A stretch of DNA of 64,000 nucleotides from Kiritimatiellia bacterium (GCA_024405265.1 JAKSOZ010000001.1:27263-91262); one strand, 5' to 3'. Positions 3,952-19,232 are shown, counted from the first letter of the stretch. Numbers and translations are program-made. The notes: generated by a model from the sequence alone, not told the origin.

Positions 3952-4115
3952 GAGGCGGGAATGATTCGTTGCTGGTGCTCGCTAAATTGCTGCGCAATTT
4001 CCAGGTAAGAAAGCCAGGTCGACATCGATTTTGCGCCTTTCATTTCAATCGGCGTCAAAATCGGGTCGCATGCAGTCTTTCTTACCTGTCGCTGTGCAGG
4101 CTAACGAATCATTCC
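3952..4115. repeat. nested inverted repeat: outer arms GAGGCGGGAATGATTCGTT / AACGAATCATTCCCGCC(CC)TC, inner arms CAGGTAAGAAAG / CTTTCTTACCTG
   Basis: read directly; arms 3952-3972 vs 4092-4115 and 3991-4002 vs 4076-4087. Confidence 0.6.
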
Positions 4116-4190
4116 CGCCCCTCCGTAGCATGAGAATACTATTAAATGCGAGGTTTGTCGCATTACGCGGCATTTGGTATAATACGAGAT

Positions 4191-5246
4191 ATGAATACTA
4201 TTGTTCGATTGTTCAATGAGTTCAAGCATGCAAAATGCTTGGAAGATATTCTTCATTCTTTTGATCCTTATGCGGAAATGTTATTCACGCGCGTTTGCCC
4301 TCCACATGTTAGTCTGACGAGGAAGTGCGATGATGCCGCAAGACTTTACGAACAAAAGTTGAGAATCGCAGCGGGAATTGCGGGTGATTTACCGGAAGAA
4401 TCACCTACCTACGGGACTATCTTTAAGGCAATTGTGGCCGCCGGTGATTTGAAGACCATTTATTATATGCGTGGTGATGCAGTTGAATTTATAAATGAAG
4501 CCAAGCATACGTTAAAACTAACGCCGGACCACTTTATTGATAATTTCTCTAAACCTGTTGTCGTATATGTAGACGATAATCGGCCTATCGTAGATGATAT
4601 AGTCGCCGTTTTAGTCTATTACAATGACGAAACAAAAATTCTATCGTGTATCTATTCATTTCGCACGCCTCAAGGATCGCGAGAGGTCGGGAAAGAGTTT
4701 TATCTAGAAGATTTGTGCGGGAAGCTGTCAAAAGAGATGGTAAGTATCGATGTGACATCAAGTAATACTGCACAGTTTTTATTGGAGGAAGGATATGTAA
4801 AAGAACTTGATGATGTCAATGATAAGATGTATAAGTCTATGGACTTCGTTTTGAAGTTCGTTCTTATGATGCAAGCTGACAAGCAGATCCTTGACATTCA
4901 TCGCACATACAAAGAGTTTAAAGATAAGAAAAAAGAGAGGGAGTCTCGTGGCCTTGTCAGTCACCAAACGGTGGCGTTAACCCAGCGCTACAGGATTCAT
5001 ATGGACAGGTGTCGTACAGATTCGCAGGTGGTCGTGCTCGATAAAGAGGGAAAGATTCTTAAAACCACTATGGTAACCGGATTCATCCGACAGCAACACT
5101 ATGGCCCAGGTAATACATTAGTCAAAACCATTTTTATTGAGCCCCACGAGACGCACGTTTGGATTAACGAAGGACTTAGAATCACAAAGGTGGTTGCGCA
5201 ATTAGGTGCAAATATTTCCCCAAAGCAAGCAGGGAAAATGGTATAA
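4191..5246 (+). CDS. hypothetical protein (AT-rich island gene)
   Basis: 352 aa; TGGTATAAT at 4176-4183 then 7 nt then ATG (leaderless arrangement); no recognisable domain. Confidence 0.5.
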   Translation: MNTIVRLFNEFKHAKCLEDILHSFDPYAEMLFTRVCPPHVSLTRKCDDAARLYEQKLRIAAGIAGDLPEESPTYGTIFKAIVAAGDLKTIYYMRGDAVEFINEAKHTLKLTPDHFIDNFSKPVVVYVDDNRPIVDDIVAVLVYYNDETKILSCIYSFRTPQGSREVGKEFYLEDLCGKLSKEMVSIDVTSSNTAQFLLEEGYVKELDDVNDKMYKSMDFVLKFVLMMQADKQILDIHRTYKEFKDKKKERESRGLVSHQTVALTQRYRIHMDRCRTDSQVVVLDKEGKILKTTMVTGFIRQQHYGPGNTLVKTIFIEPHETHVWINEGLRITKVVAQLGANISPKQAGKMV

Positions 5247-5389
5247 TATTAGCAGATAGACGATAGTAATATCGTTGCCGCGCGCTGGAACGCGAGTAGA
5301 GAATTTGTAAAGCGCACGGATCGTTTGTCAGAAACCTGGAAAGTTCGAACAAGCAAAGCTACCTCTGCGGAGAGAAATCAAGAGAAGAT

Positions 5390-7392
5390 ATGAGTGATTT
5401 AGGACTTGATTTATTTGGAGCGACAGAGGAAACAGCAAAGAGCGAAGGCCTTCGCAAGCTTGATGTTGTTAAGATGGACTATGTCGGCGCTGAAACGTTG
5501 ACATGGGAAGAGTTGTTTGATGGCTTTGACGATCTAAAGGCGATTACGTTTTCTTCAGGCATCGGGTTTGTCGAGAAGCTTCTTCGTCGGTTTAAGACAG
5601 CTGAGATCATCTTCGGATGCGAAGAGGTGATTTCCGGTACCATGCAAGATGCAATGGCATTTCAGACACTCCTTCTGGAGCGCATTCGTAAGGATGCCAC
5701 AAAGACGCTTCAGTCGATTATTGAGCGTATTGAGTCCGAATCATTGCATCTTTATGTGTCTCGAAATCGACTCTCTCATGAGAAGGTGTATCTTCTTTCT
5801 GCAGAGGATGGACGTAAGCGCGTCGTAATGGGCTCGGCGAATATGTCCTTCAATGCGTTTTCGGGGCGGCAACGCGAAAACATTTGCTATATTGATGGAG
5901 ATAGCGCGTACGATTGGTATCTTGAGAGTTTTAATGATCTCAAGCGCGAGAGTGTAGATGAGATTTCAAAGAAAGCGCTTGTCGCGGCAGATGCGGTTGA
6001 GAACATTGATTCATTGCCGATTGCTGAGACAGTAAAGGTTAAGAAGGCGATTTATATTGAACCGGTTCAAGAGGCAAAAGAGGATGTACGCTTTATACTT
6101 GATGTACATCAGCTCTCTGGGAAGTTGGCGCCAAGTATGCCTGTAATAACAAAGGCGGATAAGAAGACAGGGCGCACGCTGATCGTCCCCGATACAATTG
6201 TTAAAGTGCGCCGTCAACTCGTTCAAGAGGAAGAGAGGGAGAAGGTTCAGCGCGACGAATACCCGCAACTCGATGTTAATGTAGAGGAAGCTGTCGTTCG
6301 TTTGAATAATAAAGAACTTGATCTTAATCCAACACCTGAAGAGGTTAAAACTGATGTTGAACTGTATCTTAAGTACATGGACGGGTATTCGAAGTTCCAT
6401 GGTGCTTGGGAGGATATGCAACGGCGTTACTTTGAGTTCGCTAATTGGTTTTTCTGTACTCCGTTTATGGCAGTAATGCGTGATACTGCCGTGCGCTATG
6501 ATCGGGGTCTTCTTGCATATCCAGTCTTCGGGCTGTTATATGGGCAAAGTAAGGCTGGAAAGACGACATTCCTCGAGACGTTGCTCAAAATGATGATTGG
6601 ACAGAAACAAAGATTTCGGCGCCGGACTTCACAAGAAGCGTTATATTTGCGCTCAAGAAGAATGTGCATGGGGCGCCGATTATTGTTGACGATCTTACGC
6701 AGGCGCGCTTTAGTCAGCATGCGGTTGAGACAATAAAGTGGGATGATTATGGTGTTAATGAGCATAATTTGACTTATCCTGCTGTTGTCATAAGTGCAAA
6801 TGAAGACGTTAAAGCAATCGCCCATGAAGTTACGCGGCGCACTGTTGTTTGCAGAGTTCAGGCGGGGTTAACTAATACTGAGGTTATGAAAAGTAATATC
6901 ATTCGCTCTGTGCAAAAGAAGATGGGAACTGCGTTTTATCGAGAGTATCTTCGCCGAATGCTTGAGCAAGTGCCTGAACTTTTGGATGCGATTAAGAATG
7001 ATGAAGTCGAAGAGTCTCCGGATATTCTGAAGCTCTCGTCTGAGGTCATAGTATCGATAATCAAGGAGCATAGCGATAAGTCTCCTTCTTATGTTAGAGA
7101 ACTCTCGCTGGGAAGTTATTTTGATGAAGATGTGACAGGTAAATATGCCATTGAGGCGATTCAGCGTTCCTGGCGCACGAGCAGGGCTTCTTTTGAAATT
7201 AGTAAGAAATCGAATGAACTTCGGTACAACGCTGGAACAACTTATGATGTTGACAGGTTGCTAAAAGAGCTTCCTGAAACATTGGAGCCACGACGTTCAA
7301 GAGACTGGCTTATTGTTAATCTTGATGAGGCAAAGAAGTTCTTTAAAGTAGACTTTGAGCCAACGATTATGGAACGTTTGTTTGGGAGGTAA
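5390..7392 (+). pseudogene. PLD-family (single HKD) nuclease domain fused to P-loop NTPase; reading frame broken near 6600-6615
   Basis: HEKVYLLSAEDGRKRVVMGSANMS = HxK(x4)D(x6)GSxN motif; Walker A GQSKAGKTT; ORF 5390..6736 and ORF 6664..7392 are one protein shifted by one frame (frame-1 continues TETKISAPDF...NVHGAPIIVDD upstream of 6664). Confidence 0.55.
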
Positions 7393-7395
7393 TAT

Positions 7396-8025
7396 ATGCT
7401 TTATCTAGTGCTGATATTAATATTTGCTTTTCTTATAGCAATCAAGACGTTAGATTGCTATCTCAGATCTGCAAAAGGTAAAGGGGTGCTCGGAGAGAAG
7501 CTTGTATCCATGCGCTTGCGTGATGGGTTGGGGCCGGAATATGAGATTCTAAATGATATTTACTTGCCGACACAAGATGGTGCTACAACACAAATTGACC
7601 ATGTGGTGGTCAGCAAATACGGTATTTTCGTAGTTGAAACTAAGAATTATTCTGGCTGGATTTTTGGAGACGCGAAGGCTGCAAAATGGACGAAAAGCGA
7701 TTATGGGAAGAAGAGTCAGTTTCAAAATCCGATGCGGCAGAACTATCGTCATATATGTGCGCTCTCAGAGAACCTTGGGATCCCCAAAGACTACTTTATT
7801 GGGATTGTAGCCTTTTGTGGTACAGGGGAATTTAAGACGGAAATGCCTGAGGGCGTTGTTTATTCTAGGCGTGCGGCTAAATATATCAAGAGCTATTCGA
7901 GTCAGATTATTAAGGACGAACAGGTTCATGAAATCGCAGAGGTGATTTTGGAATGGCAGGCAACGCTTTCTAAGCAGCAAATAGCTGCGCACGTCCAGAA
8001 TCTTAATGTCAGGCATGCTAAGTAA
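7396..8025 (+). CDS. NERD (nuclease-related) domain protein
   Basis: N-terminal TM helix then NERD core (LNDIYLP...IDHVVVSKYGIFVVETKNYSGWIFG); 4 nt after previous gene. Confidence 0.65.
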   Translation: MLYLVLILIFAFLIAIKTLDCYLRSAKGKGVLGEKLVSMRLRDGLGPEYEILNDIYLPTQDGATTQIDHVVVSKYGIFVVETKNYSGWIFGDAKAAKWTKSDYGKKSQFQNPMRQNYRHICALSENLGIPKDYFIGIVAFCGTGEFKTEMPEGVVYSRRAAKYIKSYSSQIIKDEQVHEIAEVILEWQATLSKQQIAAHVQNLNVRHAK

Positions 8026-8043
8026 GGAGTTGCGAGGGAAAGG

Positions 8044-8892
8044 ATGCGATGTATGAAAAAAGGGGTTATTTATATTCTTACCAATCCGAGCTTCCCTAGC
8101 TATGTAAAGATTGGATATGCGGATGATGTAGATGCGCGGGTTAATCAACTTAACTCTAGTAGCGCAGTGCCTTTTTCGTTTCATACATATGCAACTCTTG
8201 AGGTGGAGAATCGTTGTAGCGATAAGTACGTCCACAATCTGATCGACATGATGAGGCCAGAACTTCGGAGCGTGGAGAAAAATAATATTGGTAAGATTAC
8301 TCGCCAGAGAGAATTCTTTCGTATGGAGCCGGATGAAGCATATGATGTCCTCGAGCAAATCGCTGGCTTGACCGGAGGGAAACTGACTCTTTCGGATGAG
8401 ACCAAGAATGAGACCGAAGAGAAGAAGGTTGCGGCTATCGAGATGGGTAAGTTTCAAGACACTTTGAATGCGCGTCGCAACTTCTGGTCTCAGCTTATTG
8501 ATTATGCAAATAAGAATAGCCGTTACGTAGAATTATTCTCTACCGAAAGGAAGGCCTCGCAAGATCATTGGCTTAACTTTGCATGCGGATCTAAGTATGC
8601 TCATATAGCACTGACCGTTAATACTCGTCATAATGGGATCGCAGTAGAATTTTATATACCGAAGCACAAAGCGTTGTATTCTAAGCTTGAGCAGAATCGT
8701 AAGGAAATCGAGAATGATTTAGGGTTTGAGTGTGAATGGCAACCGCTAGAAGACAAAAATGCGTCTAGGATCATTATACGTAATGAACTAGGTGATTTTA
8801 GAAAATTTGACGATAAAACTCGCAACATGGCTTTCGAGTGGCTTATTGATAAACTCGTTGTTATGCGGACGGTCTTCGCGAAGTATTATTGA
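8044..8892 (+). CDS. GIY-YIG / T5orf172-family nuclease domain fused to DUF4268-like C-terminal domain
   Basis: GVIYILTNPSFPSYVKIGYADD start typical of T5orf172/GIY-YIG; C-terminal region resembles DUF4268. Confidence 0.6.
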   Translation: MRCMKKGVIYILTNPSFPSYVKIGYADDVDARVNQLNSSSAVPFSFHTYATLEVENRCSDKYVHNLIDMMRPELRSVEKNNIGKITRQREFFRMEPDEAYDVLEQIAGLTGGKLTLSDETKNETEEKKVAAIEMGKFQDTLNARRNFWSQLIDYANKNSRYVELFSTERKASQDHWLNFACGSKYAHIALTVNTRHNGIAVEFYIPKHKALYSKLEQNRKEIENDLGFECEWQPLEDKNASRIIIRNELGDFRKFDDKTRNMAFEWLIDKLVVMRTVFAKYY

Positions 8893-8903
8893 TTGGCGGT
8901 GGT

Positions 8904-9119
8904 ATGGAAAGATATACTGAGTATAAGGTGATTCGTGTTAGCGAGAGCGGACTAGCGACGATTCTCTTGGGTGCGTCGGTTTTGCCGATGAAGAAGCTTG
9001 AGAAGGAGCTTAACAAGTATGCGCGAGATGGTTGGCAGGTCGTGTTCGAGACGATCGAGCGCCAGCGCTATCTCCTCTTCTGGACGCGTGAATCTATGAT
9101 CGTTACGCTAGGGCGATAA
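8904..9119 (+). CDS. DUF4177-like small protein
   Basis: ERYTEYKVIRV...ARDGWQVV pattern; overlaps end of previous gene (operon). Confidence 0.5.
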   Translation: MERYTEYKVIRVSESGLATILLGASVLPMKKLEKELNKYARDGWQVVFETIERQRYLLFWTRESMIVTLGR

Positions 9120-9183
9120 TATTTTTCCATAAATTATTGGAAAATTGGTCTGAACTCTTTTCTATATCACAAGAAATTCGACA

Positions 9184-9696
9184 ATGAACTATAATGACAA
9201 CAAAGTTTCGATGTCTAGTATTGTAGATGTGTTGAGAACTATCTTCCTGACAAATCATTTTGCTTCGCGGGCTTCGATCAATAAGTTGTTTGAGGGATGT
9301 AACTACGATTTGCTTGATGCAGCGTTTGAGTGCTTATGCGATAGCCTGGAAATTAATCTTGTGGATGCAGGACGTGCCAAAATTGCTCATATTAGGAATG
9401 ATGTGTATTATTTAAAACCTTGGTGTGATAAAAGAAAAGATGAATTAGGTGTTACTTCGGCAGAAGCAGTAATTATATTTACATTGTTAGATGAGGTGCG
9501 GTATGGGACACGGAGCACAATCGAAATTCGTCTTTGTGAGGCAATGCATCATGGCATTATAATAGATTGTGACAAATTCTTTAATTTTGCGAAAGGATTA
9601 TATCGACGACACCTTGCGAATATGATAGGAAATATTAACAATCAAGGTGAGTCTGCTAAGTTCGTTCAAGCGGTTAGATATTTGACGGGAAAATAG
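9184..9696 (+). CDS. hypothetical protein
   Basis: 170-aa ORF in AT-rich island, no motif. Confidence 0.4.
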   Translation: MNYNDNKVSMSSIVDVLRTIFLTNHFASRASINKLFEGCNYDLLDAAFECLCDSLEINLVDAGRAKIAHIRNDVYYLKPWCDKRKDELGVTSAEAVIIFTLLDEVRYGTRSTIEIRLCEAMHHGIIIDCDKFFNFAKGLYRRHLANMIGNINNQGESAKFVQAVRYLTGK

Positions 9697-9787: not shown

Positions 9788-10120
9788 TCAACCTTCGTAC
9801 GACAACACAATTCTATGTGGGACGCGGCGGATTAGGACTTTTGCCGCGGAAAAGGGGATGTAGGGTGAATGTTCGAAGAAGAGATGTCTTAGGCGAGTGG
9901 TTATGTATTTATCTGGTGTTGGGAAGAGTTCAGGTTTTGAAGTGTAAATCTCTTGCGGAATAGAATTGCCGCGGAGGGTGTCGCCGGGCTTCATGTATAG
10001 GTATAGGGCACGAGCCAAAAGCATCGTGCCAGTGTCCATCCATTCAAGGTGGTAGGCGTCTTTCATGCGGGCGAAGGTTTCGCCGTGGAAGGCAATCGAG
10101 TATTCTAGTTTGACTTTCAT
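9788..10120 (-). CDS. hypothetical protein
   Basis: 110-aa ORF; minus-strand GGTATAATATAGAT immediately followed by ATG (leaderless consensus promoter at 10121-10136). Confidence 0.4.
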   Translation of the reverse strand: MKVKLEYSIAFHGETFARMKDAYHLEWMDTGTMLLARALYLYMKPGDTLRGNSIPQEIYTSKPELFPTPDKYITTRLRHLFFEHSPYIPFSAAKVLIRRVPHRIVLSYEG

Positions 10121-10526
10121 ATCTATATTATACCGGATTTGCTTCCCTTTGTCCGGTTCCCAATTCTGCCGCGCGGTGTAATAAGATTCGGCTGGGACGG
10201 AGTGGGACCCATGCCGAATCTTCTCTTCTAAAGGCGGGTCGACTTGGCGTACGCGTAGCGTATCGCCGACAAAGACACGCAGTGTTTATTTTTTTTTGTG
10301 GATGGATATTATAAGCGCGGAGGGGTGGATGGCGAGAGGCGGCCTACATAGCGACGGCGAAGAAAGCATGCAGCGACCCGATTTCGACGCCGGTTGAAAT
10401 GAAAGGCGCGAAATCGATGTCGACCTTGCTTTCTTAGCCGGGAATCGCTTGCGATTCAGCGAGTATCGCCGCCCCTCGCCATCAACCCCGTAGCGCTGAA
10501 TGCTTGGATGTGGTATAATATAAGGT

Positions 10527-10784
10527 ATGAGTACAAAATGCAGATATTGTGGGTCGACGACCTATGGCACGGGGTGTTATCACAGCCCGACGGGAAAGCA
10601 CGAGCATCGCGATGATGAGAAGCACTGCGAATATTGCGGGTCGTCTTCTTATGGCACGGGGTGCTATCATTCGCCCACGAGAAAGCATCGGCATGGACCC
10701 GGCGCGAACAAGTGCATCTGGTGCGGCTCGACCTCCAACGGCTCCGGGTGTTACCACAGTCCGACGGGTAAGCACGAGAAATAA
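10527..10784 (+). CDS. small protein with three tandem CxxCG...GCYHSPTGKH zinc-ribbon-like repeats
   Basis: internal triple repeat KCRYCGSTTYGTGCYHSPTGKH / HCEYCGSSSYGTGCYHSPTRKH / KCIWCGSTSNGSGCYHSPTGKH; TATAAT 10514-10519 then 7 nt then ATG. Confidence 0.6.
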   Translation: MSTKCRYCGSTTYGTGCYHSPTGKHEHRDDEKHCEYCGSSSYGTGCYHSPTRKHRHGPGANKCIWCGSTSNGSGCYHSPTGKHEK

Positions 10785-10835
10785 GAAGACGCTATCGCTT
10801 TCCCTTTGTTCGGTGGATGTGGTATAATATTCGGT

Positions 10836-11207
10836 ATGAATCTTGTTGACATATTTGCCGCGGTGAAGAAGTGGTTTCGGAGGGCGCCGGAGACGCGCCT
10901 TAGGGGGACCACGGATGGGAATGCGTTAGCGCGGCAAAAATCGGAGATTGCGGAGCTTCTTAAGCGTGAGTGGAACCAGACAAGGAATGGAGCGCTTACT
11001 CCAAATGACATCGCGCGAGGATCGGGACGAAAAGCGTGGTGGAAGTGCGAGGCGTGCGGGCACGAGTGGGAAGCGCGAGTCTTCAGCAGATTTGATGGCT
11101 GTGGATGCCCCGAGTGTGCGAAAGTGAAGGCGGCCTGGACGCGGCGAAACAAAAAGGACAAGTTTCAACTGCAACTTTTCGAAGCTAACGGTAGCTTTCC
11201 GTTGTAA
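10836..11207 (+). CDS. treble-clef zinc-ribbon protein (DUF4379-like WxCxxGHEW...GCPxC)
   Basis: KAWWKCEACGHEWEARVFSRFDGCGCPECA; TGGTATAATAT at 10819-10829 then 7 nt then ATG (ORF caller started at upstream 10806). Confidence 0.55.
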   Translation: MNLVDIFAAVKKWFRRAPETRLRGTTDGNALARQKSEIAELLKREWNQTRNGALTPNDIARGSGRKAWWKCEACGHEWEARVFSRFDGCGCPECAKVKAAWTRRNKKDKFQLQLFEANGSFPL

Positions 11208-14552: not shown

Positions 14553-15584
14553 ATGAATATGCGCTACATGATTTGGAATAATAAGGGTGGGGTCGGCAAG
14601 ACCTTTCTTACCTATGTGATTGCCACGGAGTATGCGATCAAGCACCCCGAGAAGCGTGTGGCGGTTGTAGATATGTGCCCCCAAGCTAATGTTTCCGAGA
14701 TGCTATTGGGTGGTAATGGCACGGGCGAGAAGAATCTGGCCGAATACGCGTCGAACGGCAAGACGATCGCCGGCTACATTAAGGAACGCTATGCGCGGAG
14801 TCGTAATTCTCGACTCGGAACGGAAAGCGGCTATTATTGCCATGTCGTGACGAAGAATCCCGAGATGCCGCGAAATCTCTATTTGCTCCCCGGCGATGTC
14901 GATCTTGATATTTGCTCGAGCTTGATTTCGTATATGGGGCAGGCGCCAGAAAAGCAGGCGTGGCGCAATAGCCGCATGTTGCTCGATGATGTGATCGGCG
15001 CCTTCGAAAACGAGCATCGCGATACGGTTGTCTTCATCGATTGCAATCCCAGCTTTGCCGTTTACACGGAGATGGCGGTTGTGGCCGCGCGTGAACTTAT
15101 CATTCCCTGCACGGCGGATACTGCGTCCATCCGCGGCATTCTCAACGTCTTCCGTCTGATTTACGGCATTAACGCCTATCATTTGCTCGGCATCAAGCAG
15201 GATGTCGACGACTCCTTCTTCACGTTCTCGGAAACGGCGTCAGCGCAGGGGCTTACTTCGCCGAAGGTGCGGATGATCGTTCTCAATAAGTCGCGCAGTC
15301 TCGATGCGAAGGCGACGCGTGCGTGGCAGGCGCACAGTCAGCAGATTCGCGAAATCATGGCGAAGATCCATACGGCCTATGAAGATTGCTTCCGCGATGT
15401 GGAGGAGCTCATCTACGATATCAAGGACGGCAATACGCTCGCCACCATCGCCAATCATTGTGGGCTTCCGATTTCCTCGATGAGCCAAGGCGAGTACGAC
15501 ATCTACGGTTGCAGTACGATGGCCAATCAGACGCAGATCGACGCGATTCAATCGCAACTCGACGTCCTCGTCGCGAGCTTATAA
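14553..15584 (+). CDS. ParA/MinD-family ATPase (stand-alone)
   Basis: deviant Walker A NNKGGVGKT at N-terminus; TGGTATAAT 14536-14544 then 8 nt then ATG. Confidence 0.7.
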   Translation: MNMRYMIWNNKGGVGKTFLTYVIATEYAIKHPEKRVAVVDMCPQANVSEMLLGGNGTGEKNLAEYASNGKTIAGYIKERYARSRNSRLGTESGYYCHVVTKNPEMPRNLYLLPGDVDLDICSSLISYMGQAPEKQAWRNSRMLLDDVIGAFENEHRDTVVFIDCNPSFAVYTEMAVVAARELIIPCTADTASIRGILNVFRLIYGINAYHLLGIKQDVDDSFFTFSETASAQGLTSPKVRMIVLNKSRSLDAKATRAWQAHSQQIREIMAKIHTAYEDCFRDVEELIYDIKDGNTLATIANHCGLPISSMSQGEYDIYGCSTMANQTQIDAIQSQLDVLVASL

Positions 15585-15732: not shown

Positions 15733-17790
15733 ATGAATAATATAGCTGAAATTCTTAAGAAATCGTCTTCCCACGGTTTGGAACTTTTTAGCGCGGAAGA
15801 AATAGCTTGGCTTGAAGACCGAATTGAAATCAAGAAAACCAAAACAGGCGAGGGCTATTATACTAATTGCTATGTGCGCAACAAGAGCATCAAGGTGACG
15901 CCGGAGGAGGTTGTGCGTCAGCTCTACGCGCATCGCTTGGTCGAAGAGTATGGATATGATATCGGAAGACTCGCCTTTGAGTTTCCGGTGTTCTTTGGAC
16001 GAGAGGCGAAGAGAGCCGATATAGTCGTTCGCGATAAAGAGGATTTGAATGTCCCGTACATTATCGTCGAGACGAAGAAGCCGAAAGCCAAAGACGGACG
16101 TGAGCAGCTGAAGAGTTACACGCATGCAACCGGCGCGAGTATGGCCGTCTGGACGAACGGCACGACTATAACCTATCATCAACGCAAGAACCCCAATTTC
16201 TTCGAGGATATCCCCGAGATTCCGACCGCCGACAAGACCTTGGGAGACATTCTTAGTAAGAAGTTCACGATTAAAGATCTTATCGAGCAAGACAAACTCA
16301 CGAAGACGGGTAAATCGCTTAAAGATCTGATTCTAGAAATGGAAGATGAAGTCTTGGCGAATGCCGGAGTGGACGTCTTTGAGGAAGTCTTTAAACTAGT
16401 CTTTGCAAAGCTCTACGATGAGAAGCGAGGCGCGAGATATCCGGAGAATGATCTGGAATTTCGCAACTCCGGGCAGAGTGATATTCAGCTTAAGGACAAG
16501 ATTGAGAAGTTGTTTAAAAAGGCGTGCAACGAGTGGCCGGGCGTCTTTCCGGAGGATGCCAAAATCAACTTGACTCCGCCGCATCTGTCGATCTGTATCG
16601 CTTCATTGGAAACCGTCAAGCTCTTTAATTCTAACCTCGACGTTGTTGATGAGGCTTTCGAGTATCTGATCAACAAGAGCAGTAAGGGTGAGAAGGGACA
16701 GTACTTTACGCCGCGTTATGTGATTGATATGTGCGTGCGGATGTTGAATCCCAAGCCGACCGAGAAGATGATTGATACAGCGGCGGGCAGTTCGGGATTC
16801 CCTGTGCATACGATCTTTCATGTTTGGAAGCAAATGCAATTGGCGGCACACAAGCCGATCAGCCATTTATTTACCGCTACTGATAAAGGTGAAGAGGAAA
16901 CGGATTATGTCCGCAATAATGTCTTCGCCATTGACTTTGACGAAAAAGCCGTGCGCGTTGCACGAACCTTGAATTTGATTGCCGGTGATGGACATACGAA
17001 TGTCTTGCATTTAAATACGCTTGACTTTGGTCGATGGAACTCGACGACCAAGGAAGAAGCTTGGGTAGATACCTATAATGAGGGTTGGAAGAAGCTTAAG
17101 AAGCTTGAACGAGATTCCTCTCACACCTATTTCGAGTTTGATATCGTCATGGCAAATCCGCCTTTTGCCGGAGAGGTCAAAGAAGGTCAGATTCTCTCTC
17201 GGTACGAGTTCGGACAGAAGAACGGTAAGCCGCAGCATAGCGTTAATAGAGACATCCTTTTTATCGAGCGGAATATCAAGTTTCTGGGAGCCGGCGGTCG
17301 AATGGCCATAGTCCTTCCGCAGGGACGATTTAATAATTCGACTGATAAGTATATTCGTGACTACATTGCTAAGCAATGTCGTATTTTGGCGGTAGTCGGC
17401 ATTCACGGAAATACGTTTAAGCCGCACACCGGCACAAAGACGAGTGTCTTGTTCGTTCAGAAGTGGCAACCCGATCCGAGGCAGCCGAACTATAACCCCG
17501 TGCGCGAAGATTATCCCATTTTCTTCGCGACTCAGCGATTGGAAGGTAAGAACTCTCGCGGCGACAAGTTGTATTGGAACAAGGATAAATCCGGCACGAC
17601 AACGGACCCCAAGCTGGCTCTGTGCGATATACATGGTCACCCAGTTATCTATCATGATCTTTTTGCAACTTATGACTATAAGTGGAATGAAGAGAAGAAT
17701 GATAATGAAGAAGTTAGGCTTACGCCTGATGGAATTGCAGAGGCGTTTGCACAATTTGCGGCAAAGGAGAAACTGAGTTTTTTTCGCTAA
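15733..17790 (+). CDS. restriction-modification enzyme: N-terminal HsdR_N-like PD-(D/E)xK nuclease domain fused to N6-adenine DNA methyltransferase (BcgI-A-like)
   Basis: DIVV...IIVETKKP (D...ExK) nuclease motif near N-terminus; MTase motif I-like region and catalytic NPPF (ANPPFAG); 685 aa. Confidence 0.65.
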   Translation: MNNIAEILKKSSSHGLELFSAEEIAWLEDRIEIKKTKTGEGYYTNCYVRNKSIKVTPEEVVRQLYAHRLVEEYGYDIGRLAFEFPVFFGREAKRADIVVRDKEDLNVPYIIVETKKPKAKDGREQLKSYTHATGASMAVWTNGTTITYHQRKNPNFFEDIPEIPTADKTLGDILSKKFTIKDLIEQDKLTKTGKSLKDLILEMEDEVLANAGVDVFEEVFKLVFAKLYDEKRGARYPENDLEFRNSGQSDIQLKDKIEKLFKKACNEWPGVFPEDAKINLTPPHLSICIASLETVKLFNSNLDVVDEAFEYLINKSSKGEKGQYFTPRYVIDMCVRMLNPKPTEKMIDTAAGSSGFPVHTIFHVWKQMQLAAHKPISHLFTATDKGEEETDYVRNNVFAIDFDEKAVRVARTLNLIAGDGHTNVLHLNTLDFGRWNSTTKEEAWVDTYNEGWKKLKKLERDSSHTYFEFDIVMANPPFAGEVKEGQILSRYEFGQKNGKPQHSVNRDILFIERNIKFLGAGGRMAIVLPQGRFNNSTDKYIRDYIAKQCRILAVVGIHGNTFKPHTGTKTSVLFVQKWQPDPRQPNYNPVREDYPIFFATQRLEGKNSRGDKLYWNKDKSGTTTDPKLALCDIHGHPVIYHDLFATYDYKWNEEKNDNEEVRLTPDGIAEAFAQFAAKEKLSFFR

Positions 17791-17822
17791 CCCCCTTTGA
17801 CGAGACGAAGTACGAGTCTCTG

Positions 17823-19232
17823 TTGGAGGGGTTGGAGATTTGCGAGGTGTTGCTCTCGGATGTTCGAGGCGAGGATGAGTCTTTTCGCTTTGACTCTGAA
17901 TTCTTTAGAAAGGATGACATTAATCGCCTTCGACAGCTCGGTTTGTTGTCACACTCTTCGTTGATTGAGCTAAGTCGTAGAATCGATGTGGGGTATGTTG
18001 GGGAGATGACAAGCGAATATACCACTGATGCAACAGCTCCGAAGTTGATTCAGACTCGAAATATTGATGAATTTATACCAAATGACACTGACATAATTCA
18101 TATCAGTCAAGAATTCCATGAACAGTTGCGGAAAAGCCAAATTCATACGAATGATATTCTGTTGGCGCGAAGCGGCTCTTTTGGAAATGCGGCAATCTGG
18201 CTTGACAAGGAGACGGTTAATTCGTCCGATATTATTATTATAGACGTTGATCCGAGTAAGATCGATCCGTGTTACCTGGTGGCCTTTTTGAATTCTCGGT
18301 ATGGTAGATTTCAGTTGGATCGTTATGCAAGTGGGGCGGTTCAAAGACATGTTAACTTGACTATACTTGAGCGGCTTAATATTGCGTTGTTGTCAGAAGA
18401 CGTCAGATCTTTTGTTGGGTCTTTGGTGCGTCAGGCTTTCAAAACGATAACTGACTCGCGCGCCTGTTATCGCGCTGCCGAGGATAAGTTGCTAAAGGAC
18501 CTTGGTTTCTTAAATTGGTCACCTGTAGACGGAGGAGTTTCTGTTAAACCGTTTTCGGAGGTGGCTAATGCATGCCGTATAGACGCGGAGTACTTTCAGC
18601 CGAAGTTTGATGAACTGAAGCAGTTGCTCGCGCAATGTGAGTTGCGTGACTTGGGTGGTAATGAAGGGTTGGTAAATATCTATAAATCGATAGATCCCCC
18701 GAGTGATTGCTATGGAAGCGAAGGTGTGCCATTTGTGCGTATTTCTGATTTCTCGAAGTTTGGCATAGAGATACCGGATATAAGAGTTTCGGAAGAAGTA
18801 TGTAGCGATTGCCGCCGCATAAAGAAGAATGCGATTCTTCTTACGAAAGACGGTAGTGTGGGCATTGCGTACAAAGCGGAGTGTGATCTTGAGATGGTAA
18901 CATCTGGAGCCATTCTTCATTTGGAAGTAAAAGACGATTCTGTTGATCCTGATTATCTCGCGTTAGTTCTTAATTCTCGCATTGTCAGAATGCAGGCGGA
19001 GCGCGATGCCGGCGGATCGATTATTCAGCATTGGAAACCTTCACAGATAGAGAAAGTTCAGATTCCGATCTTGCCGCGAGGTGTTCAACATGCTCTTGCG
19101 GATAAAGTGCGCGAGTCTTTTCGCCTTCGTCACGAAAGCAAGCGGCTTCTGAATCTTGCCAAATCTGCTGTCGAGAAGGCAATAGAAGATGGCGAAGAGG
19201 CTGCTGTAAAATTTATTGAGGAGGGTGTGTAA
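17823..19232 (+). CDS. restriction-modification specificity (S) subunit with two target-recognition domains
   Basis: two-TRD architecture with central and C-terminal conserved helices typical of HsdS; apparent TTG start, so the true start is uncertain. Confidence 0.6.
   Translation: MEGLEICEVLLSDVRGEDESFRFDSEFFRKDDINRLRQLGLLSHSSLIELSRRIDVGYVGEMTSEYTTDATAPKLIQTRNIDEFIPNDTDIIHISQEFHEQLRKSQIHTNDILLARSGSFGNAAIWLDKETVNSSDIIIIDVDPSKIDPCYLVAFLNSRYGRFQLDRYASGAVQRHVNLTILERLNIALLSEDVRSFVGSLVRQAFKTITDSRACYRAAEDKLLKDLGFLNWSPVDGGVSVKPFSEVANACRIDAEYFQPKFDELKQLLAQCELRDLGGNEGLVNIYKSIDPPSDCYGSEGVPFVRISDFSKFGIEIPDIRVSEEVCSDCRRIKKNAILLTKDGSVGIAYKAECDLEMVTSGAILHLEVKDDSVDPDYLALVLNSRIVRMQAERDAGGSIIQHWKPSQIEKVQIPILPRGVQHALADKVRESFRLRHESKRLLNLAKSAVEKAIEDGEEAAVKFIEEGV

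Follow-up and report, generated by a model that had tools for sequence, protein, structure and literature searches.

Four closely spaced nuclease-type genes in a Kiritimatiellia island are probably a stack of independent defence modules

We analysed a 64,000-nt stretch of DNA from a Kiritimatiellia bacterium (the window), in which four co-oriented genes at 5390-9119 (+ strand) encode a PLD (HKD) nuclease/P-loop ATPase (PLD-ATPase), a NERD protein, a T5orf172-DUF4268 fusion and a DUF4177 protein. These genes are probably a strain-specific stack of independently mobile single-gene modules, presumably active in defence, rather than one multi-component machine. A single conserved four-gene system, as proposed in the initial annotation, was not borne out, because the full set is limited to islands of one population that share at least 98% identity. 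Neighbourhood comparison showed independence for T5orf172-DUF4268, DUF4177 and most PLD-ATPase genes, with NERD as the exception. The host of the island looks like a gut or rumen Kiritimatiellae bacterium.

Results

Layout of the island

ORFs and Pfam matches for each gene confirmed the four closely spaced genes that had been claimed, and the ORF coordinates reproduced the reported gaps of 3 and 18 nt (Table 1). The third gap had been given as -4 nt, which holds solely with a TTG start at 8889; from the ATG at 8904, used in the NCBI and Logan gene calls, it becomes +11 nt. The AT-rich character of the region was also upheld, with a GC content of 0.37-0.47 across about 3.5-10.0 kb against mostly 0.51-0.57 in the flanks. 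Two further + strand genes lie in the island. The first has a product whose predicted fold resembles AcrVA2/FinQ, and it looks leaderless, starting from a TGGTATAAT box at 4175-4183; for the product of the last, Pfam, PADLOC and other homology searches detected no family. The island has a hairpin repeat of about 125-180 nt on each side, and the two copies are inverted to each other.

Table 1 Features of the island, in window coordinates
Feature	Position	Strand	Basis
Left hairpin repeat flanking the island	3954..4114		context
First island gene, 351 aa, rare family without annotation	4191..5246	+	context
Extended -10 promoter box TGGTATAAT (putative)	5239..5247	+	motif over-representation; overlaps the stop codon of the upstream gene
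PLD(HKD)-nuclease/SF3-like P-loop ATPase gene, frameshifted (ORFs 5390-6736 plus 6664-7392); repaired product 667 aa	5390..7392	+	Pfam, homologues, AF2/Foldseek
HKD catalytic motif, H130-E-K132 ... G148-S-A-N151	5777..5842	+	alignments
Walker A, GQSKAGKT, residues 385-392	6542..6565	+	alignments of 32 and 40 sequences
Frameshift, A3 versus A4 in intact alleles (CAG AAA ACA AAG = QKTK)	6605..6607	+	DNA comparison
Walker B, IIVDD, residues 431-435, downstream frame	6679..6693	+	sequence and alignment
NERD protein, 209 aa, N-terminal hydrophobic anchor, PD-(D/E)xK-type motif D68...E81-T-K83	7396..8025	+	Pfam, sequence
T5orf172 (GIY-YIG-like) head (~8062-8361) fused to DUF4268 tail (~8473-8886)	8044..8892	+	Pfam, PADLOC
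DUF4177 small protein, 71 aa from ATG 8904	8904..9119	+	Pfam, gene calls
Last island gene, 170 aa	9184..9696	+	context
Right hairpin repeat, in inverted orientation to the left one	10314..10497		context

The window contains 12 copies of the TGGTATAAT box where 0.27 would be expected; 11 of the 12 are on the + strand, and several stand directly before genes. Judging from this over-representation, a unit spanning the four genes is likely to be transcribed from the copy at 5239, its leader being about 135 nt long. Shine-Dalgarno-like sequences precede the four genes, that of NERD overlapping the PLD-ATPase stop codon. No terminator-like site was found within the intergenic gaps, the four + strand matches being inside genes or upstream of the unit. 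With all genes on one strand, these sequences, the box at 5239 and no terminator-like site in the gaps, the single transcription unit suggested earlier is plausible, and the four genes would then be co-transcribed. Gaps as short as 3 and 18 nt, a lone promoter box and a gene order that does not vary between at least four samples are also compatible with a cooperating unit.

Domains and predicted fold of the PLD-ATPase

The PLD-ATPase belongs to Pfam family PF27394 ('Aq_aa27'), which its full-length homologues (at 90% identity) carry as well, and NCBI names homologues 'NgoFVII family restriction endonuclease'. Its head carries the HxK...GSxN pattern of the PLD/HKD superfamily and scores above the Pfam cut-offs for RE_NgoFVII (34.0 bits, cut-off 23.8) and PLDc_2 (28.4 bits, cut-off 27); H130, K132, G148, S149 and N151 are invariant in alignments of 32 and 40 sequences. 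The remaining part shows the features of SF3/AAA+ ATPases, namely Walker A and B motifs, a sensor-1 Asn, an Arg finger and, in a model of moderate quality, an ASCE fold. Seven of the eight Walker A residues are invariant across the family and Q386 is conserved in at least 90%, while D434-D435 of IIVDD, N471 of ISANED, R483, R484 and R489 are likewise invariant.

The AF2 model (pLDDT 69, pTM 0.50) was used for Foldseek searches, which matched Cch (5dgk, E 2e-6), the NgoAVII R protein (4rct, 3.3e-5) and SauUSI (1.2e-3). Other matches of the ATPase half were the JCV and SV40 LTag, papillomavirus E1, poxvirus D5, RuvB and the SaPI5 primase-helicase. Hence the motor half models like the Cch/D5/E1-type ring helicases and may be oligomeric in the same way. 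Elsewhere, the SF3/Cch-like motor class is known from helicases that replicate mobile elements.

Distribution and neighbours of the PLD-ATPase family

The homologue search returned 2074 clusters at E ≤ 1e-3, nearly all of about 665 aa, for which there is no PADLOC model and no solved relative. The loci come from Clostridia, Kiritimatiellia, Verrucomicrobia, Spirochaetota, Lentisphaerae and Bacteroidota; identity across these phyla is 55-66%, which points to horizontal transfer, and solitary copies were found on 12 plasmids. Neighbourhoods were compared, using crude ORF calls, in 83 other loci from gut and rumen MAGs. The commonest neighbour cluster was present in at most 13 of the 83 loci, and 28 of 76 PLD-ATPase genes were solitary, having no same-strand neighbour within 100 nt. 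The defence-island setting proposed in the initial annotation held up, since the homologues adjoin varied defence-type genes, including SLFN-g3 helicase (PDC-S41), GmrSD, HsdM, Csm6, BrxL, PD-T4-1-like and similar genes. An SLFN-g3-type helicase recurs in 10 loci, and a NUDIX-type gene and a 105-115-aa gene in about nine each; these recurrences look like clade-specific island synteny. An SLFN-g3 helicase lies upstream of the PLD-ATPase in the relatives L001 (84% identity) and L002 (90%). Downstream, L001 has a PD-T4-1/PDC-M26A-like gene followed by a DUF2357/PDDEXK_7 gene, while L002 has T5orf172-DUF4268 immediately next to the PLD-ATPase and carries neither NERD nor DUF4177.

NERD as a facultative neighbour

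The NERD protein matches its Pfam family with 113.3 bits (cut-off 22.1; 1e-32). Genes for NERD proteins adjoin the PLD-ATPase in four of the 83 loci (L015, L029, L038 and L072) and occur nowhere else in them, that is, at 4 of 158 adjacent positions versus 0 of 812 other genes (Fisher p ~7e-4). The association between the two genes is rare, non-random and facultative, and it is a weak one. One reading is that the PLD-ATPase and the membrane-anchored NERD protein form a facultative two-gene module in the PVC group, with T5orf172-DUF4268 and DUF4177 as independent passengers. This would account for NERD always being the immediate neighbour and for the 3-nt gap in the window, where the NERD Shine-Dalgarno lies over the PLD-ATPase stop codon. 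Moreover, NERD is on the upstream side in two loci and on the downstream side in the other two, its subtypes differ, and the nearest relatives of the PLD lineages concerned (92-97% identical) are without NERD, which suggests repeated independent acquisition. Against this, NERD is absent from 79 of the 83 loci, including the closest relatives L001 and L002, and in L015 and L029 it is separated from the PLD-ATPase by 129-176 nt. In addition, the SLFN-g3-type, NUDIX-type and 105-115-aa neighbours recur in the same manner, and NERD is still intact here after the PLD gene broke. We therefore regard a two-gene module as unlikely.

Independent T5orf172-DUF4268 and DUF4177 genes

The T5orf172-DUF4268 protein, which has an alternative start at 8053 (279 aa), scores 55.1 bits for T5orf172 (cut-off 20) and 100.6 bits for DUF4268 (cut-off 27; model positions 2-139 of 140). 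Its head shows the GIY-YIG-like IY...KIG(Y/W)...R...E core, with I9, Y10, K22, I23, G24, R32, R89 and E90 invariant in 18 fusion homologues. In PADLOC, the N-terminal half matched PDC-S57 (3.6e-47) and the C-terminal half PDC-S11 (3.6e-29). Full membership of either family was rejected, as only model positions 1-128 of 221 and 159-311 of 318 are covered; this partial coverage indicates a chimera of both candidate families. Its homologues adjoin SLFN_AlbA_2/GmrSD or HsdR/RadC, or sit amid housekeeping genes, and the fusion neighbours the PLD-ATPase in one of the 83 loci.

DUF4177 (42.2 bits, cut-off 25; 9.7e-11) adjoins the PLD-ATPase in none of the 83 loci. A gene-sized copy with 87% DNA identity is present in an unrelated island (L100), where it adjoins a C5 methyltransferase and DUF2357/PDDEXK_7 and where the similarity ends at the gene borders.

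Such exchange of gene-sized modules would also fit a role of these genes in an integrated mobile element, in which the PLD-SF3 helicase serves in replication or processing and T5orf172-DUF4268 is a free-standing homing endonuclease, within an island bounded by inverted repeats. The top structural matches of the ATPase half (SCCmec Cch, SaPI5 primase-helicase, poxvirus D5 and papillomavirus E1) agree with this, as do the AT-rich island between inverted hairpin repeats, the AcrVA2/FinQ-like predicted fold of the first gene product, typical of mobile elements, and the occurrence of T5orf172 genes as homing endonucleases in phages (PMC10448857). Nevertheless, Pfam, homology and repeat scans found no integrase, transposase, primase or origin-like feature in the island, and the PLD-ATPase is nearly absent from viral contigs (one match among 2.9 million). 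Its neighbours are mostly defence genes, and in chromosomes it is often solitary; furthermore, the T5orf172 head matches a PADLOC defence candidate (PDC-S57) and DUF4268 is tied to Type IV restriction. A mobile-element role is thus quite improbable.

An integrated multi-nuclease defence system needing all four components appears very improbable. It draws on the tight spacing, the single promoter box and the gaps free of terminator-like sites, on a gene order that is unchanged in at least four metagenome samples, and on L038, where a PLD-ATPase is accompanied within 3 kb by a NERD and a DUF4268 protein. The DUF4268 protein of L038, however, has another N-terminal domain and the gene order differs. 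The full set does not extend beyond islands at least 98% identical, DUF4177 and the fusion are next to the PLD-ATPase in 0 and 1 of 83 loci, L002 pairs the PLD-ATPase with T5orf172-DUF4268 in the absence of the other two genes, and every component is also found alone in unrelated contexts. We attribute the packing of the four genes to modules having been stacked where defence genes concentrate in a hotspot, rather than to co-function.

A recent frameshift with intact alleles in the same population

The PLD-ATPase gene had been reported as frameshifted, and DNA comparison traced this to an A4-to-A3 deletion that makes it a pseudogene in this genome. The window reads CAGAAACAAAG at the site, whereas L084, L086 and L087, from other metagenomes and 98-99.9% identical to the window, have CAGAAAACAAAG and encode the intact 667-aa protein; the family consensus is KMMIGQKTKISAPDF, and homologue lengths are uniform (658-700 aa). 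The deletion puts Walker A and Walker B in separate frames. The same frameshift is carried by L085, while the intact L084 differs from the window at about four positions in 6.5 kb (99.94% identity), one of them the 1-nt indel. Compared with L002, protein identity is 90% against 79% for DNA, which indicates purifying selection in the lineage. The possible decay of the locus raised earlier applies to the PLD-ATPase, which is broken, but not to the other ORFs, which are intact and keep their catalytic motifs. That the whole locus is a decaying, functionless remnant, as the frameshift of its largest gene in the window and L085 might imply, is extremely improbable in view of the near-identical intact allele, the unbroken remaining ORFs and the protein-level conservation.

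Comparison with known systems

As the initial annotation had supposed, PADLOC and other searches matched the combination to no named system. N-terminal PLD nucleases with variable C-terminal domains are known as single-gene defences, namely END nucleases, SauUSI and BfiI (PMC12191111). Like these, the PLD-ATPase has an N-terminal single-HKD PLD head and no obligatory partner gene, and most members of its family have no adjoining methyltransferase; unlike these, its C-terminal part is the PF27394 SF3/AAA+ module and not an iEndoIII, EVE or B3 sensor. General Pfam scans gave no B3 match, nor was a target-recognition domain found. SauUSI has an SF2 helicase and an SRA-like domain, neither of which is present in the PLD-ATPase. 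A SauUSI-type Type IV enzyme was rejected, as the motor is SF3/AAA+-like instead of SF2 and Pfam and Foldseek found no SRA, EVE or PUA domain.

NgoAVII/NgoFVII likewise pairs a nuclease with an ATPase, through an R subunit (PLD and B3) and an N subunit (ATPase), together with a methyltransferase. In the PLD-ATPase, by contrast, nuclease and ATPase share a single polypeptide, and the methyltransferase is absent from the operon and rare near homologues: Pfam found none within 4.1-10.1 kb of the window, and N6_Mtase was 3 of 84 scanned immediate neighbours. A classical NgoFVII/NgoAVII-type restriction-modification system was rejected, as no cognate methyltransferase lies beside the nuclease. Mokosh and DISARM DrmC also combine a PLD effector with an NTPase, of a different motor class. 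No protein here gave a PADLOC match to Mokosh, and weak domain-level PADLOC matches were obtained for DrmC (E 0.0057) and PLD_Helicase (E 0.0034).

The modification-dependent nucleases MdgA/MdgB (PMC12366544) contain DUF4268, as do GmrSD fusions (PMC4619093). These resemble T5orf172-DUF4268 in being single-gene, defence-island proteins with a nuclease head and a DUF4268 tail, the likeness to MdgA/MdgB being based on their published DUF4268 domain. The head here is T5orf172 (GIY-YIG-like), while GmrSD is ParB-like and HNH, and dependence on modification is presumed. In ZwsA, a stand-alone defence protein, a NERD domain serves as the effector (bioRxiv 10.64898/2026.04.06.716636). The window protein shares the domain, the D...ExK motif and a defence-island location with the NERD modules of ZwsA, PglW and MAD6, yet it is minimal (209 aa) and membrane-anchored, without their kinase, VHS, S4 and UvrD domains.

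Discussion

Taken as a stack of modules, the island would be a horizontally acquired set of self-sufficient, nuclease-based innate-immunity genes arranged head to tail behind one promoter. The PLD-ATPase may be a stand-alone, ATP-driven, restriction-like enzyme, in which NgoFVII/BfiI-type HKD heads would pair to form one active site and the SF3/AAA+ motor would presumably assemble on foreign DNA, translocate and license cleavage. Because the family has no linked methyltransferase, it is more likely to be Type IV-like or structure-sensing than part of classical restriction-modification. Here it is inactivated by the recent 1-nt deletion; intact alleles circulate in the same population. The NERD protein may be a membrane-anchored PD-(D/E)xK-type nuclease that acts alone and is an optional, recurrent neighbour of the PLD-ATPase in the PVC group. 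T5orf172-DUF4268 is a candidate single-chain nuclease that joins a GIY-YIG-like cutter to a putative DNA- or modification-sensing tail, and DUF4177 is probably a small, separately mobile gene.

Tentatively, and with the balance somewhat against it, PF27394 might represent a new class of defence nucleases that are ATP-dependent and made of one polypeptide, uniting an NgoFVII-type PLD cutter with an SF3/Cch-like ring motor; the class would be widely distributed among gut and rumen bacteria and would escape the defence-finding tools now in use. Interchangeable adjacent partners (NERD, SLFN-g3 helicase and NUDIX) might tune or extend it, and the island itself might hold an AcrVA2-like gene for counter-defence, with a new hairpin repeat at its boundaries.

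The gene cluster should not enter catalogues as a new immune system of four genes. The worthwhile target is the PLD-SF3-like ATPase family, with more than 2000 sequence clusters spread horizontally over gut and rumen phyla, and an activity test would have a natural control in the intact and frameshifted alleles, which are 99.9% identical. If active, this family would extend the ATP-dependent restriction enzymes by a new class of motor.

Layout of the AT-rich island

The initial annotation proposed, from the sequence alone, that four adjacent genes constitute a single multi-nuclease anti-phage operon. Our results bear out the cluster itself, agree with a defence island and probably with an operon, but the comparison of 83 loci argues against a new four-gene system. 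The four genes, whose domains were all recovered above the Pfam gathering thresholds, lie among six + strand genes of the window, which belongs to the Kiritimatiellae MAG GCA_024500545.1 (proteins MCQ2367414-420), in an island that is AT-rich as first described, with a GC content of 0.37-0.47 across ~3.5-10.0 kb versus mostly 0.51-0.57 on either side. The left flank is of housekeeping type (a POR subunit, an AMP-binding ligase, tRNA-Val and an SBF transporter), and the right flank carries DUF1349, GT2 and ArsR genes. Antisense ORFs at 6011-6421, 6496-6825 and 7765-8457 were rejected as genes because they overlap Pfam-supported + strand genes.

Features of the island and its surroundings (window coordinates)
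Feature	Position	Strand
tRNA-Val	2232-2307
Left hairpin element	3954-4114
351-aa protein without known family	4191-5246	+
PLD-ATPase, frameshifted	5390-7392	+
NERD protein, 209 aa	7396-8025	+
T5orf172+DUF4268 protein, 282 aa	8044-8892	+
DUF4177 protein, 71 aa	8904-9119	+
170-aa protein without known family	9184-9696	+
Right hairpin element	10314-10497
85-aa Cys/His-rich repeat protein	10527-10784
DUF4379 treble-clef zinc-finger gene	10806-11207
ParA-like ATPase gene	14553-15584
Second defence-type locus	15733-19232
TGGTATAAT copies	4175, 5239, 10511, 10820, 12183, 14536, 20187, 24922, 26588, 40090, 46561	+
TGGTATAAT copy	50023	-

The island is flanked by two elements that can fold into hairpins and are inverted relative to each other. 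Their cores (3978-4102 versus 10463-10342) are 83% identical; the ~19-bp outer closing stems differ in sequence while pairing is kept in both, and at one apical position a C-G pair replaces T-A. Folding gives minimum free energies of -83 kcal/mol (z -6.4) and -106 kcal/mol (z -9.2). Rfam gave no match, whether at the gathering threshold or with E<=10, no further copies were found in the window or the 98 fetched loci, and JGI metagenome contigs lack a 21-mer of the apical loop. In assemblies of the same island, contigs break off at or near the right hairpin. Possible identities of the two elements are paralogous small RNAs, recombination sites and insulators. The island was rejected as an IS110 element, retron or integron cassette, since it lacks a DEDD transposase, a reverse transcriptase and an integrase, and its repeats are in inverted, not direct, orientation.

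To the right, the 85-aa protein consists of three Cys/His-rich units of 29 aa, each specified by an 87-nt DNA repeat (72-77% identity between repeats), and is followed by the DUF4379 gene. DUF4379 homologues also adjoin island genes elsewhere, namely in L002 (6440-6709), a close relative described below, and 10 nt upstream of the 351-aa protein homologue in loci L101 and L102. For the 351-aa protein, the plasmid collection gave no match, and the contigs bearing its homologues are only 1.2-1.5 kb long. The second defence-type locus encodes a 685-aa protein with N6_Mtase/Eco57I-type methylase and HSDR_N_2 domains and then a 469-aa specificity-subunit-like protein, and the ParA-like ATPase gene precedes this pair.

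Probable co-transcription of the four genes

Against an expectation of 0.27, the window contains 12 copies of the motif TGGTATAAT, of which the one at 5239-5247 lies ~140 nt upstream of the PLD-ATPase gene. At 4175, 10511 and 10820 an ATG is located 7 nt past the box, which suggests that leaderless mRNAs are common in the source organism. In front of the - strand ORF 9788-10120, CGGTATAAT is followed by 6 nt and then ATG. The internal genes of the four-gene unit have Shine-Dalgarno-like sequences, and the gaps are 3, 18 and 11 nt; the first two are as previously given, while the third, formerly -4 nt, becomes 11 nt with DUF4177 starting at 8904. No terminator-like site was found between the four genes, the four + strand scan matches being intragenic or upstream of the unit. 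Given the putative promoter box, the Shine-Dalgarno-like sequences, the short gaps and the terminator-free spacing, co-transcription is plausible, and the single transcription unit proposed earlier is probably an operon.

A frameshift in the PLD-ATPase gene

The ORFs 5390-6736 and 6664-7392 are two halves of one PLD-ATPase gene, whose homologues have 658-700 aa, the best of them matching over its full length with 90% identity. Copies of the island were located in Logan assemblies by exact-protein look-up. Three of these near-identical islands (L084, L086 and L087; 98-99.9% DNA identity to the window) carry CAGAAAACAAAG, whereas CAGAAACAAAG is present in the window and in L085, which is 100% identical and may share the MAG's own reads. 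A one-base deletion at 6605-6607 has thus shortened an A4 run to A3, and it parts Walker A from Walker B. In L084 the complete 667-aa PLD-ATPase is called, bearing out the frameshift originally reported for the first gene; in L086 and L087 the contig ends inside the gene. Over 6.5 kb, only ~4 differences, the indel among them, separate the window from L084 (99.94% identity), so the frameshift is recent. Recoding at 6602-6612, whether by programmed frameshifting or by slippage during transcription, was rejected, since the site has no slippery heptamer and an A-run of only 3-4 bases, and phase variation was rejected on the same grounds.

Architecture and distribution of the PLD-ATPase family

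With 2074 clusters at E<=1e-3, this is a large family. Its invariant residues include the HKD motif (H130, K132 and GSxN), the Walker A sequence GQSKAGKT except Q386, the Walker B aspartates of IIVDD, several arginines, and N471 of ISANED, a sensor-1-like Asn. The newer Pfam family PF27394 'Aq_aa27' sits after the PLD domain. PADLOC, NCBIfam and PHROGs held no model covering the PLD-ATPase, and no sequence relative turned up in the PDB by profile search. We compared an AF2 model of P0001, a protein 90% identical to the window PLD-ATPase (pLDDT 69), with the PDB using Foldseek. The N-terminal half matched the NgoAVII R protein (4rct, E 3.3e-5) and SauUSI (7clg, E 1.2e-3). The C-terminal half matched the SCCmec Cch helicase (5dgk, E 2e-6) as well as JCV/SV40 large T antigen, papillomavirus E1, poxvirus D5/E5, SaPI5 primase-helicase and RuvB (5.6e-5 to 4.7e-3).

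PLD-ATPases occur in gut and rumen Clostridia, Kiritimatiellia, Verrucomicrobia, Spirochaetota, Lentisphaerae and Bacteroidota, with 55-66% identity across phyla. Only 1 of 2.9 million viral contigs carries one, and distant copies stand alone on 12 plasmids (for the best 8 of the 12 matches, 22-28% identity across most of the protein's length). Together, this cross-phylum identity, near-absence from viral contigs and presence on plasmids point to a horizontally transferred host or plasmid gene.

Gene neighbourhoods of the PLD-ATPase and its companions

The neighbourhood set consisted of 83 PLD-ATPase loci with flanking DNA of 10 kb at most. Clustering placed the largest neighbour family in at most 13 of them, and 28 of 76 PLD-ATPase genes had no same-strand neighbour within 100 nt. 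Pfam domains in 84 directly adjoining genes on the same strand were varied and leaned towards defence: SLFN-g3 helicase (7), ResIII (6), NUDIX (4), NERD (4), DUF3427 (3), HsdM-type N6 methylase (3), GmrSD (2), Csm6 (2), Fic (2) and BrxL (1). Neighbours in L001, which with L002 is closest to the window PLD-ATPase, matched PADLOC PDC-S41 and PDC-M26A/PD-T4-1. The proposed defence-island setting is thus supported by the company that the PLD-ATPase keeps.

The window's other proteins were searched in the 83 loci by blastp, phmmer and jackhmmer. Homologues of the DUF4177, 351-aa and 170-aa proteins were found in none. The T5orf172-DUF4268 fusion was found in one, the nearest relative L002, directly after the PLD gene and without NERD; another DUF4268 protein was present in L038, and NERD homologues in four (L015, L029, L038 and L072). 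These counts, with no neighbour family exceeding 13 loci, speak against the four genes being one new system, by the yardstick of a missing shared neighbourhood that the initial annotation had itself set for refuting its proposal. L002 and the window have the PLD-ATPase, T5orf172-DUF4268 and right-flank DUF4379 in common and differ in the cargo between them, a pattern that would be expected of gene-by-gene turnover at a hotspot.

Other arrangements were also observed. In L001 and L002 an SLFN-g3 helicase lies 16-19 nt upstream of the PLD-ATPase, a position occupied in the window by the 351-aa gene with its AcrVA2-like predicted fold. The L001 helicase matches PDC-S41 at E 1e-261, and its family is present in 10 of 83 loci by clustering, nearly always upstream. 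Oscillospiraceae loci (L045, L058, L062 and L064, also L041 and L053) have a ~103-108-aa gene (called as 220 aa in L045) that begins -4 to 13 nt after the PLD-ATPase; the first four also have, 16-21 nt upstream, a gene of 126-129 aa. NUDIX was the domain scored in four upstream neighbours of the set. This three-gene arrangement is clade-specific and differs from that of the window.

The other modules travel independently of one another. Full-length T5orf172-DUF4268 homologues (36-57% identity) were found in three unrelated settings: flanked by SLFN_AlbA_2 and GmrSD genes, after HsdR and RadC, and after IspDF in housekeeping surroundings. In none of the three does the homologue adjoin a NERD, PLD or DUF4177 gene. 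The GIY-YIG-like core residues are invariant, and the protein is a chimera of the PADLOC candidates PDC-S57 (N-terminal half) and PDC-S11 (C-terminal half). In two unrelated loci, a RadC-like JAB gene directly precedes a DUF4268-containing nuclease gene (L093, 5260-6855; L038, 6237-8086), the nuclease head being T5orf172 in the former and an unknown N-terminal domain in the latter. The DUF4177 gene of another locus, L100, shares a 90%-identity protein cluster with that of the window and lies in a defence-type operon with a C5 methyltransferase, a 1088-aa gene, DUF2357/PDDEXK_7 and a 125-aa gene. Since the similarity between the two loci (L100 6000-6220 versus window 8903-9123; 87% DNA identity) stops almost exactly at the gene borders, DUF4177 is a module exchanged in one gene-sized piece.

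The main rival explanation is a facultative pairing of PLD-ATPase and NERD. All four NERD genes directly adjoin the PLD-ATPase (4/158 adjacent positions versus 0/812 other ORF-called genes; Fisher p ~7e-4), yet 79 of the 83 loci have no NERD. Two are upstream and two downstream, with gaps of -19 to 176 nt, and two of the four proteins bear an extra zinc ribbon. Between L015 and L038 the PLD genes are 95% identical, yet the NERD subtypes differ and lie on opposite sides, and the closest relatives of these PLD genes (L021, L026 and L017; 90-97% identical) have no NERD. The adjacency is therefore recurrent, independent and confined to PVC-group genomes, yet optional.

Functional interpretation

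END nucleases, BfiI and SauUSI combine an N-terminal PLD nuclease with exchangeable C-terminal domains (PMC12191111). DUF4268, a predicted DNA-binding domain (PMC5714182), forms the tail of the modification-dependent nucleases MdgA and MdgB (PMC12366544) and also of GmrSD fusions (PMC4619093), and in ZwsA, a stand-alone defence protein, the catalytic module is a NERD domain (bioRxiv 10.64898/2026.04.06.716636). By analogy, this published work supports the view that each architecture would act as a single gene. On this basis, the locus is best read as a stack of solo defence nucleases, with all activities predicted. Within this stack, the PLD-ATPase would be an ATP-driven restriction-like enzyme that is dead in this strain. 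As a whole the cluster is of a common type, a defence island, and it contains one predicted architectural variant, PLD joined to an SF3-like motor, and a chimeric GIY-YIG-like/DUF4268 nuclease.
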